A stretch of DNA of 64,000 nt from Pseudomonadota bacterium (GTDB lineage Bacteria; Bdellovibrionota_C; UBA2361; OMII01): NCBI GenBank assembly GCA_046300175.1, contig JBKCMS010000065.1:11270-75269 (forward strand). The letters are read 5' to 3'. The translations under genes were made by a program, and so were the position numbers. The notes under the pieces are model-generated. The model ran no database searches. It had not been told where the DNA came from and was given only the letters and a program-made list of their open reading frames with translations. Shown one piece after another: positions 45,485 to 47,581 of this stretch; position 1 is the first letter of the stretch; each line of letters opens with the position of its first letter.

Positions 45485-47581
45485 ATGCAAGCATCAATGA
45501 AGATAAGTTTAGCCGACATAGTGTTGATGTTTTTGGTGATAGCTATCGCCGCGATGTTAATCGTGCCGTTGCCTACCCCTGTTTTAGACGTTCTGCTCGT
45601 CTTAAATCTCTCTCTCTCGATACTGCTCCTTCTTGTTGGTCTGTATGTTGGCAGCTCATCAGCCCTTTTCACATTCCCATCAATCCTGCTTCTCAGCACG
45701 CTCTTTCGCCTTGGCCTTAACGTTGCCTCAGCGAGGCTAATACTGAGTCAGGGAGAGGCGGGTAGAGTTATTGAGGCATTTGGTACTTTTCTGATCCGCG
45801 GAGAGATAGTAGTTGGATTGATTATCTTTGCCATAGTCACTGTGGTGAATTTCATCGTTATTTCCAACGGCGCAGCCAGAGTCTCAGAAGTGGCTGCACG
45901 TTTTGCTCTGGATGCATTACCTGGGCGACAGGTGATGATCGACAATGACGCTCGGTCGGGAGTTATATCGGCAGATGAAGCAAGTCGAAAGCGTGATGAA
46001 TTAAGGCGTGAGTCGCAACTGTATGGCTCCATGGATGGAGCTATGAACTTTGTTAAGGGAGATGCGATAGCTGGCATTCTGATTATCCTCACCAATATAT
46101 TCGGCGGTATCTACATGGGAATGTCATCCGGATTGGGACTCTCTGACGCCATTCAGACCTACACGGTCCTCACCGTTGGAGATGGTCTTGTTACCCAGAT
46201 TCCAAGCCTTCTGACATCTATTTGTGCTGGTATAATAGTGACTCGTGTTTCAACATCTGAGCGTTCGAGTTTGAGCGCAGATTTACACACCCAGCTTTTT
46301 AGCCAGCCGATAACTCTCTTGGCTACCGCCGGTGTGCTGATCATCATATCGTTAATGCCAGGCATCCCGATGCTACCTTTTCTGCTGGCGGCTGCCGGCT
46401 TAATTGCGATCGGAATAGTTGGCCGGAAAAAAAGTCATACTCGATTAACAATGCAGGCAGAGGCACCCGGCGACAGTGGAGACGGACTCACGGCGACTGG
46501 CGAGGGAGATGCGGCGGATTCGACGTTAGTGCTGGCCTTGGATAAGACATCACTATTTCGCGTATATCGTGCCCGAGCTGTTGATTACTCGGCCTCTTGG
46601 CGTCGCTTCCGTGAAGTATTCTTTGAGGATACGGGGATCCAATTACCTCTTTTACGCGTAGTTGCCGATGATCTACTACCGCCTGGAGCGTATGTAGTAC
46701 GCCACATGGGGGTTGAAATGCTCTCAGGAACTGTTCCAGATGATGCGATTCTTGCTGAGATATCGAGCACCCAAGCTGCGGTGCTCGGATTTAGATCTCT
46801 AAGAGAGGAGGAACATCCCTGTTCAGGGCATCGCTTATTCTGGACACCACGCACTTCTCGTTCACTTGAAATGCTACAGGCGGCTCGAGTTCGGTACTAC
46901 GATTTTCTGGAATTCATAGCACTGAGAATAGCTCAGGTCACCCGGGAGCATCCTGAGGAGGTCGTATCGGTAACGTATGTGCACTCGCTGCTGCGCCAGA
47001 TTGAGAAGAAGCACCCGGGATTAGTCGCTGAAGGATTCAGACGGGAATTTGTCTCAGTACCCAAGCTGGCCGAGATCGTTCAGGAATTGATTCGTCAAGG
47101 AGTTAGTATACGTGACTTCCGCTCGATCATGGAGTGTGTCGCAGCCTACTGTGCATCTTCTGGGGTTGCTGACAACTCTGAATCGCCGGTTGATCTGGCA
47201 GAAGTAGTACACTTTGTGCGAGCGTCTCGCCGCCGGCAGATAGTTAGGCGATTTGTTGGCAGTGTTAATTCTCTGCCGGTTTTGACCCTCTCACCGGATG
47301 TGGAGCAGAATTTTGAGGAGGCGTCAGCCGATCGTTGGACGACTTCACTTGCGATGGCACCAGAGCTCTATGATACACTTCTTCGAGGGCTGTATTCTGT
47401 TGTGCGACCAACGCTAGCAGCAGGGTGCCTTCCAGTGGCGTTACTTTGTAGCCGAGACATCAAGGAGAAAGTGATCGCTTTTGTGCGCATGAGTGGCTTG
47501 CGTGTATTCGTTACTACTCTCGATGAGATCGATCCGGCTTTTCCGGTCATGCAGATCGGGGTCTGGGATGCGAAGGTTTAG
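45485..47581 (+). CDS. FHIPEP-family export-gate protein (FlhA/SctV homologue), an orphan within the window
   Basis: The N-terminal TM region contains [24 protein letters not shown]. The segment [28 protein letters not shown] matches the FHIPEP signature (R-x-[SA]-E-V-[GA]-A-R-F-[TS]-L-D-[GA]-[ML]-P-G-K-Q-M-x-I-D-x-D). [16 protein letters not shown] is also present. It is 698 aa, typical of FlhA. Confidence 0.8.
   Translation: [698 protein letters not shown]

Follow-up and report, generated by a model that had tools for sequence, protein, structure and literature searches.

A FHIPEP-family export-gate gene inside a Tad pilus operon, and fused clusters of Tad and type III export genes in related loci

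The stretch analysed here (hereafter the window) comprises 64,000 nucleotides of contig JBKCMS010000065.1 and carries a Tad/Flp pilus operon in which the gene directly after tadC, at 45485..47581 on the forward strand, encodes a protein of the FHIPEP (SctV/FlhA) family, whose members serve as export-gate components of type III secretion systems (T3SSs) and of flagella. This protein is a real full-length member of the family, and its gene, as judged from the related loci, is an integral and vertically inherited member of the operon in a lineage of uncultured, mostly freshwater bacteria that carries the label Bdellovibrionota. In a second group of FHIPEP proteins, here called the sister group, the same Tad operon runs on into a needle-less type III export core, and therefore we read the window as a reduced form of a fused Tad-T3SS locus and its FHIPEP gene as the retained gate subunit, integral to the Tad operon and acting with the Tad machine, a reading to which we assign a probability of roughly 0.6. 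Only FHIPEP, usually together with a kinase/HEAT partner gene, remains in the window's own group. An earlier note on this DNA had called the combination undescribed, and indeed no description of FHIPEP/SctV together with Tad/Flp/CpaF was found in the open-access literature searched.

The open reading frame (ORF) begins with ATG and yields the 698-aa protein that had been described from the sequence. The Pfam profile PF00771, whose failure to match would have refuted the identification according to the earlier note, matches residues 22-684 over profile positions 2-654 of 657 (579.1 bits, E = 1.7e-173, against a cut-off of 29.1), and both signature motifs are present, a motif of 28 residues at 132-159 and GDAIAGI at 192-198. 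The layout proposed at that time, an N-terminal domain with eight transmembrane (TM) segments followed by a cytoplasmic C-terminal domain, is borne out by a hydropathy scan, which places about eight hydrophobic segments within residues 9-312, and by a full-length AlphaFold2 model built from 23 clade sequences, in which the C-terminal domain (residues 346-698) reaches a predicted local distance difference test score (pLDDT) of about 85-90. Foldseek comparison of this domain with the FlhA_C/SctV_C structures of CdsV, Helicobacter pylori FlhA, InvA, YscV, EscV and MxiA gave target-normalised TM-scores of 0.75-0.85 with E values of 1e-18 to 1e-15, by which the four-subdomain FlhA_C/SctV_C fold is confirmed in the predicted model. 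The Pfam family, the length, the two-domain layout and the four-subdomain cytoplasmic fold are thus all shared with canonical SctV proteins (YscV, InvA, MxiA, EscV, CdsV).

The same protein scores below the thresholds of both canonical subfamilies. Its best-scoring NCBIfam model is the SctV equivalog TIGR01399, at 557.9 bits against a cut-off of 692.25 (134 bits short), and the FlhA equivalog TIGR01398 gives a lower score still, 513.7 bits against 772.1 (258 bits short); among solved relatives YscV ranks best with 376 bits, followed by SsaV with 328 bits and then by FlhA proteins. By these scores the window protein is classed as neither canonical FlhA nor canonical SctV. An exhaustive search of representatives returned 7404 relatives, and a neighbour-joining tree of 152 sequences, which has no bootstraps and no rooted outgroup and is built on saturated distances, separates three groups: the window clade with 50 representatives, a group of 24 and a group of 78. 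Sampled members of the group of 78 are by NCBIfam either canonical SctV, with 758-934 bits (one truncated member lower), or canonical FlhA, with 836 bits, whereas sampled members of the group of 24 fall below both cut-offs, as the window protein does. This group of 24 is the sister group; it includes loci L017, L018, L019 and L102, the last in basal position. The window protein therefore differs from canonical SctV in its separate tree group, and also in its locus, which has no SctRSTU, SctN, SctC or needle gene. Rather than a canonical FlhA or SctV that had simply moved into the operon, the gene is most plausibly what is left of a fused Tad-T3SS locus.

Residues of the membrane domain were mapped by alignment to a FlhA chain of 692 aa, on which the residue numbers match those published for Salmonella. 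According to a 2026 cryo-EM preprint, the proton path and inner charge ring of FlhA are formed by R85, R94, N137, R147, R154, D158, D199, D208, D249 and Q254 (bioRxiv 10.64898/2026.06.13.732081), and earlier genetics had shown their importance (PMC3139655). Equivalents of all of them are present in the window protein. Across 24 clade sequences, those of R94, N137, R147, R154, D199, D208 and Q254 are invariant, those of R85 and D249 are each kept in 23 of 24, and the D158 position is D or E; the region of TM1-4 with the FHIPEP loop shows 73-77% pairwise identity within the clade. The invariant pathway points to what is probably a working ion-coupled membrane ring. Compared with flagellar FlhA, then, the membrane proton pathway and the charge cluster of the FHIPEP loop are conserved residue for residue, whereas the chaperone-binding and linker residues are not kept and any flagellar context is missing. 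In the chaperone-binding dimple D456 is replaced by H444 and F459 by S447 (H in 22 of 24 clade members at the first position, S or T in 20 of 24 at the second), and the linker residues E351, W354 and D356, whose conservation the earlier note had proposed to check, align to T, G and G in a part of the alignment that is of low confidence. The equivalent of K203 is N188 in the window protein (codon 46046-46048), and this position is K in 17 of 24 clade members, N in 6 of 24 and R in 1 of 24. In Salmonella, FlhA K203 interacts genetically with FliR, and a K203W mutant is suppressed through FliR (PMC3139655). All three fused-cluster FHIPEP proteins that were read (L017, L018, L019) have K at this position.

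These scores and residues bear directly on the possibility that the organism is flagellated like Bdellovibrio and that this gene is its only flhA, lying away from the flagellar genes. Many Bdellovibrionota are indeed flagellated (PMC13200544), some cluster fragments carry the label 'FlhA' from the Joint Genome Institute (JGI), and the FlhA model still gives 514 bits. However, that score lies 258 bits under the equivalog cut-off and below the SctV score, a canonical FlhA representative reaches 836 bits and stands in another tree group, and the chaperone-binding D456/F459 and linker E351/W354/D356 align to H/S and T/G/G. Moreover, the gene follows tadC clade-wide, and the sister group continues with injectisome-type SctD/SctJ and not with flagellar genes. 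We regard a displaced flhA as very improbable.

The close coupling to tadC that the earlier note had remarked on is present in the window and is widely conserved. The tadC gene ends at 45455, a gap of 29 nt precedes FHIPEP with GGAG lying 7 nt before its ATG, and the next gene, encoding a pseudokinase-HEAT protein, starts at 47616 after a further 34 nt, all three genes being on the forward strand; a promoter and terminator scan of the window found no terminator-like site at either FHIPEP junction. An identical FHIPEP protein with identical neighbours occurs on several metagenome contigs, and a search for homologues yielded over 120 clusters (about 700 aa, identity of at least 47%) with an intact reading frame, among them abundant ones of 68, 38 and 31 members. 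Matches in reference genomes are metagenome-assembled genomes (MAGs) labelled Bdellovibrionota or Bdellovibrionales, and one labelled Pseudomonadota, while two further MAGs with FHIPEP, found by protein look-up, are labelled Deltaproteobacteria. In a tblastn map the order tadA-tadB-tadC-FHIPEP is found in 14 of 14 loci, with FHIPEP identity going down to 41-45%, and in the deeper members L016 (37%) and L101 genes of the T2SSF family stand immediately upstream of FHIPEP. The adjacency of tadC and FHIPEP is accordingly seen in every window-clade locus examined (L001-L014, L016 and L101; 37-100% identity) and also in the sister-group loci L017 and L102, with gaps of 29-135 nt across loci. Instead of the isolated recruitment that the earlier note had envisaged, the gene is thus best seen as an old, vertically conserved operon member, with a membership that spans about 50 clusters at 50% identity.

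Within the window clade the operon ends either with FHIPEP alone or with FHIPEP and the kinase/HEAT gene. In L013, the deepest MAG contig of the window clade, FHIPEP is the operon's last gene and the next gene (12182-12874, reverse strand) lies on the opposite strand; since the kinase/HEAT gene is absent downstream of FHIPEP there, the pseudokinase partner is not obligatory. It is absent in L102 as well. The designation of this partner as a pseudokinase with HEAT repeats, made earlier from the sequence, agrees with a catalytic HRD changed to CGN and with relatives that match the C-lobe of Pkinase and HEAT_2. A hydrophobic segment at residues 309-327 is followed by a long HEAT-repeat region, an architecture resembling receptor kinases. 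The partner evolves fast, with 36% identity to the same relatives for which FHIPEP has 87%, and its position is kept in both FHIPEP groups.

Selection on the FHIPEP gene was estimated from orthologues at 77-87% protein identity. Synonymous distances (dS) are saturated in nearly all pairs, leaving as usable measures the nonsynonymous distances (dN) and the statement that dN is far below saturated dS. FHIPEP has a dN of 0.10-0.18, compared with 0.09-0.13 for TadA, 0.22-0.39 for TadB and TadC, and 0.61-0.74 for the kinase/HEAT gene; because its dN is as low as that of TadA and far below saturated dS, the gene is, on these estimates, under strong purifying selection. Such values speak against the idea that the gene is a relic without function, left from a lost T3SS and carried along in an essential operon, or that general collinearity preserves a chance neighbourhood; the missing other T3SS genes at the locus and the equally syntenic downstream housekeeping genes would otherwise allow either. 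More than 120 clusters have an intact frame of about 700 aa, the proton path is invariant, and in both deep non-canonical groups FHIPEP still stands next to tadC where the flanking genes differ. A relic or chance neighbour is in our view scarcely credible.

No other type III gene accompanies FHIPEP in the window, as had been noted before for 15 kb on either side. Pfam scans of window ORFs of at least 150 aa, minus three that lie inside or overlap longer ORFs, found no FlhB/SctU, FliPQR/SctRST, SctN/FliI, SctJ/FliF, SctQ, secretin or needle/rod gene in the 64-kb window. About 9 kb further upstream, as represented by another contig of the same genome type, there is likewise no type III, flagellar, secretin or prepilin-peptidase gene, and this extension contains glycosyltransferase and sugar-modification genes only. 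Searched by tblastn, neither the window nor any locus of its clade matched a core protein of L017.

The sister group is where the type III genes are found. Locus L017 is a 101-kb JGI contig with a FHIPEP protein 38% identical to that of the window and the same gene array from the PP2C phosphatase through the kinase/HEAT gene, the gene after FHIPEP being homologous to the window pseudokinase-HEAT (21% identity over 804 aa, E = 1.5e-18). There the array continues with two FHA proteins, which give weak matches to the YscD cytoplasmic domain, then SctJ, a 78-aa ORF, a FliJ-like SctO, SctQ, SctR and the start of SctS at the contig end. Loci L018 and L019 (GCA_020845775.1 and GCA_900079655.1), which cover the downstream half from FHIPEP onward, show FHIPEP, kinase/HEAT, FHA, FHA, SctJ, a small ORF, SctO, SctQ, SctR, SctS, SctT and SctU, and in L102 the order is TadA, TadB, TadC, FHIPEP, a SctD-like FHA protein, a second FHA protein, SctJ, SctR, SctS, SctT and SctU. 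Neither an SctN ATPase nor SctL, a secretin or a needle gene was called in L017, L018, L019 or L102, and TadA is the only secretion ATPase in the fused loci. The SctU/FlhB-like proteins consist of the four-TM N-terminal domain only, ending shortly behind it and lacking the NPTH autocleavage motif; because SctU stops after the membrane domain and has no NPTH, the substrate-switch domain is, to judge from these protein sequences, missing. These fused clusters are needle-less type III export cores joined to a Tad system, and the components of the pilus and of the type III apparatus seem to make up a single machine. In L017 one of the FHA proteins (14608-16056, 482 aa), a double-FHA protein that is SctD-like by weak Yop-YscD_cpl matches, has its sole hydrophobic segment at the extreme C-terminus and would therefore be without the periplasmic ring-building domains of canonical SctD.

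The earlier note had offered two functional readings, a hybrid or moonlighting export function and a stand-alone FlhA-like regulator. The first, in its hybrid form, gains strong support from the sister group, where tadABC-FHIPEP runs into SctD-like, SctJ and SctR/S/T/U genes, while the second has found no specific support and stands beside an invariant proton pathway.

A further explanation starts from the same fused clusters. A needle-less core (SctJ and SctR/S/T/U, with or without SctD/O/Q) may lie at a separate locus without an sctV of its own, its gate subunit being encoded in the Tad operon by a gene that was left behind or moved there for co-regulation; the pilus would then have a complete T3SS* at its side, as it does in Myxococcus. 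Chlamydiales are among the groups with split T3SS loci (PMC3459982), assembly of the FlhA nonamer is reported to depend on the gate (bioRxiv 10.64898/2026.06.13.732081), the membrane domain of the window protein is fully conserved, and so is its charge cluster, which in FlhA faces the export gate, and relatives own exactly such core genes, directly downstream. What tells against such a displaced sctV is drawn from cluster abundances and contexts rather than from a direct genome search. The SctR of L017 leads to a well-separated clade, about 54 clusters with 45-58% identity, after which identity drops sharply to canonical SctR, and these clusters, counted at 90% identity, have only 1-3 members each, whereas window-type FHIPEP clusters number more than 120 and some are abundant, so that the cognate SctR of the abundant carriers should have been visible. 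A metagenome scan with the SctR-clade alignment gave, among the matches listed, canonical SctR/FliP only (42% identity or less) and no clade member, which counts neither for nor against. FHIPEP stands upstream in all 3 SctR-clade contexts inspected and in the fourth fused cluster, L102, with no V-less cluster seen, and the window protein, like 6 of 24 clade members, has N at the position equivalent to the FliR-interacting K203 of Salmonella. Given how few and how sparsely populated the SctR clusters are (3 members at most, against up to 68 for FHIPEP clusters), the abundances make it less likely that the window clade has a cognate export core, and we consider a displaced sctV unlikely, though well worth keeping in mind.

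Returning to the retained gate subunit, the conserved proton path and the tight operon coupling suggest a proton-coupled ring working with the TadB/TadC/TadA motor. The FHIPEP protein would assemble into the customary ring in the inner membrane, with a C-terminal ring on the cytoplasmic side, and would conduct protons by way of the conserved R85-D208-type pathway. Its physical partners would be the TadA ATPase and the TadB/TadC platform, with a switch made up of kinase, phosphatase and FHA proteins in control, and it may energise or gate the export of proteins, its presumed substrates, which would then be handled by the Tad pilus machine, as has been proposed for Kil/T3SS* of Myxococcus. A bolder version holds that the ring works without any SctRSTU/FliPQR gate, that the TadB/TadC platform fills the central socket and that the fused operons are an intermediate or the ancestral form. 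The TadB/TadC platform has been predicted to consist of three heterodimers and to contain an ion channel (PMC10790770), and we put this version forward tentatively, as a possibility that falls well short of even odds.

Several observations weigh against reading the window in terms of a retained gate subunit. The export core (SctRSTU or FliPQR/FlhB) may be encoded elsewhere in the genome. The FlhA membrane nonamer is reported to be unable to assemble without the export gate (bioRxiv 10.64898/2026.06.13.732081), and for that reason a gate-less FHIPEP ring would need another central partner. The membrane domain of the window protein is modelled at low confidence (pLDDT below 50 in the full-length AlphaFold2 model). 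The neighbour-joining tree does not recover the window clade and the full-cluster group as specific sisters, with a mean distance of 1.51 between them against 1.47 to canonical proteins, and the case for homology of the two arrangements consequently comes for the most part from synteny and from the kinase/HEAT gene that they share. The downstream genes tig and clpP are equally syntenic in the window clade, which attributes part of the conservation to general collinearity. Furthermore, there is neither a secretin (RcpA/CpaC) nor a prepilin peptidase (TadV/CpaA) in the window, and neither was found in the related loci examined; both may be encoded elsewhere, as in the two-cluster Kil system. A predatory lifestyle, and any predatory role of the machine, would be taken from the phylum label only.

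The closest known parallel is the Kil system of Myxococcus, a Tad-like pilus that recruits a needleless T3SS* for prey lysis, one complex having been proposed (PMC12075869, PMC12428579). The relevant literature comprises Seef 2021 (PMC8460266), Herrou 2025 (PMC12075869) and, as cited in reviews, Thiery 2022, and Kil-like systems have been reported in most Bdellovibrionota (PMC13200544). Like the present operon, Kil is a Tad/Flp-type machine with FHA-domain signalling proteins, and in Myxococcus it is coupled functionally to a type III export apparatus without secretin, needle or translocon. The window encodes an FHA protein (36300-37193) together with a Ser/Thr protein kinase and a PP2C phosphatase, and the fused clusters add further FHA proteins, matching the FHA association of the Kil type. 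There are also clear differences. In Myxococcus the genes form separate clusters, kil at MXAN_3102-3108 and MXAN_4648-4661 and T3SS* at mxan_2434-2464, whereas here FHIPEP lies inside the tad operon. The Myxococcus T3SS* has a full sorting platform and an ATPase, whereas in the related fused clusters the whole export core follows FHIPEP and no ATPase was called; set against that needleless system, the window has the FHIPEP subunit only, and the fused clusters have SctD-like, SctJ and SctR/S/T/U proteins with or without SctO/Q, and no SctN or SctL called. The KilF ATPase carries an N-terminal FHA domain, whereas the 519-aa TadA of the window gave no FHA match at E <= 0.01.

Chlamydia offers a different kind of orphan, flagellar-type flhA, fliI and fliF genes located away from a flagellar cluster, which accompany a complete injectisome with its own SctV and are not known to lie in a pilus operon. 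The 'Myxo' loci, basal non-flagellar T3SSs of former Deltaproteobacteria, are needle-less and secretin-less, long conserved and argued to be functional (Abby and Rocha 2012, PMC3459982). They keep their ATPase and are not described as joined to tad, whereas the clusters presented here have no ATPase called and a truncated SctU.

Coordinates of the operon, of its surroundings and of the fused clusters are collected in Table 1. The Tad/Flp (type IVc) features present in the window are Flp prepilins with the G/XXXXEY processing motif, TadA, TadB, TadC, RcpC/CpaB and a TadZ/CpaE-like ATPase. For the last of these the CpaE-homologue, ParA and MinD models match below their cut-offs, and the gene is syntenic in all loci that reach that far.

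Table 1. Features of the window and of the fused loci, with the matches or notes by which they were assigned.
Feature	Coordinates	Strand	Evidence or remark
ABC-2/Wzt transporter pair	16586-18919		
1000-aa multi-domain glycosyltransferase	21626-24628		
Long ORF	24637-26331		no Pfam match
Long ORF	27271-28755		no Pfam match
PP2C-type Ser/Thr phosphatase, first gene of conserved array	35273..36286	+	PF00481, PF13672
FHA-domain protein, FHA at C-terminus	36300..37193	+	PF00498 18.4 bits, just under cut-off
Hanks-type Ser/Thr protein kinase	37245..38642	+	PF00069 180 bits; C-terminal hydrophobic segments at residues 429-463
TadZ/CpaE-like ParA/MinD-family ATPase	38639..39889	+	AAA_31, CbiA
Flp prepilin 1	40209..40400	+	G/ASMVEYA motif; PF04964 Flp_Fap on identical gene in L001
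Flp prepilin 2	40685..40888	+	same processing motif; PF04964
RcpC/CpaB	40954..41832	+	PF16976; TIGR03177 pilus_cpaB 124 bits against cut-off of 71
TadA/CpaF secretion ATPase, 519 aa	41942..43501	+	PF00437 T2SSE; NCBIfam TadA-family 208 bits, below cut-off
TadB platform protein	43516..44517	+	PF00482 T2SSF
TadC platform protein	44532..45455	+	PF00482 T2SSF
Non-canonical FHIPEP (SctV/FlhA-family) export-gate protein	45485..47581	+	PF00771 579 bits, full length
Pseudokinase with one TM segment and HEAT-repeat region, 769 aa	47616..49925	+	HRD changed to CGN; orthologues match Pkinase C-lobe and HEAT_2
Thioredoxin-fold redoxin	50483..51064	+	AhpC-TSA, Redoxin; membership of system uncertain
tRNA-Leu(tag)	51084-51165	-	between redoxin gene and tig
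tRNA-Val(tac)	58429-58504	+	after lon
Fused cluster L017	L017:14608-20664		
Fused cluster L018	L018:1-13600		
Fused cluster L019	L019:1-13900		
Fused cluster L102	L102:136-12200		
Truncated SctU of L018	L018:11877-12704		length range of the three, 228-295 aa
Truncated SctU of L019	L019:12019-12906		see L018
Truncated SctU of L102	L102:10825-11511		see L018

The array opens with the PP2C gene, which is syntenic in L002, L003, L006, L007, L008, L011, L013 and L017, and in all relatives a trio of PP2C, FHA and Ser/Thr-kinase genes stands at the head of the Tad operon. This trio recalls the threonine-phosphorylation switch of the Pseudomonas type VI secretion system H1-T6SS (PpkA/PppA/Fha1), an analogy that is raised in the Kil paper. 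Orthologues of the window FHA protein in L006 and L007 pass PF00498 with 23.5 and 22.8 bits against 20.7 and also show a weak Yop-YscD_cpl match; the window protein was considered as an SctD homologue and ruled out, its FHA domain being C-terminal and no TM segment being predicted.

Two Flp prepilin genes, 67% identical, stand in tandem in the window, compared with a single pilin gene in most relatives. The promoter and terminator scan gave no enrichment over shuffles, and its only notable feature is a strong hairpin at 40405-40434 after flp1, with 12 base pairs and a T-rich tail, which may attenuate read-through and so set the stoichiometry of the pilins. Rfam and tRNA scans of the window found no regulatory RNA near the operon and only two tRNAs.

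Downstream of the array follow the redoxin gene, tRNA-Leu, tig, clpP, clpX and lon. The redoxin gene comes after the kinase/HEAT gene in L005-L011 and is absent from L016-L019 and L102, and in the window the conserved operon with the redoxin stops just short of tRNA-Leu. The left 30 kb or so of the window is a large cell-surface polysaccharide region (1-29000) with sugar-nucleotide genes, many glycosyltransferases and methyltransferases, and Wzm/Wzt-type genes.

For the cooperation of the Kil pilus and T3SS* in bacterial predation, current models hypothesise one complex (PMC12075869, PMC12428579). A conserved operon in which the gate gene follows tadC, together with sister operons that join the Tad genes to an otherwise complete core that has neither ATPase nor switch, is independent genomic evidence for co-assembly, and these loci offer simpler natural versions for study, with one gate subunit or with a core that has no ATPase. 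With these loci the FHIPEP family has at least two lineages beyond canonical SctV and FlhA, a point of relevance to the early evolution of type III secretion. Given that FlhA rings are reported to need the export gate, a sharp structural question is raised, and if TadB/TadC do occupy the gate socket, the result would be a new kind of nanomachine that combines a proton-driven type III 'motor' ring with the assembly platform and ATPase of a type IV filament.

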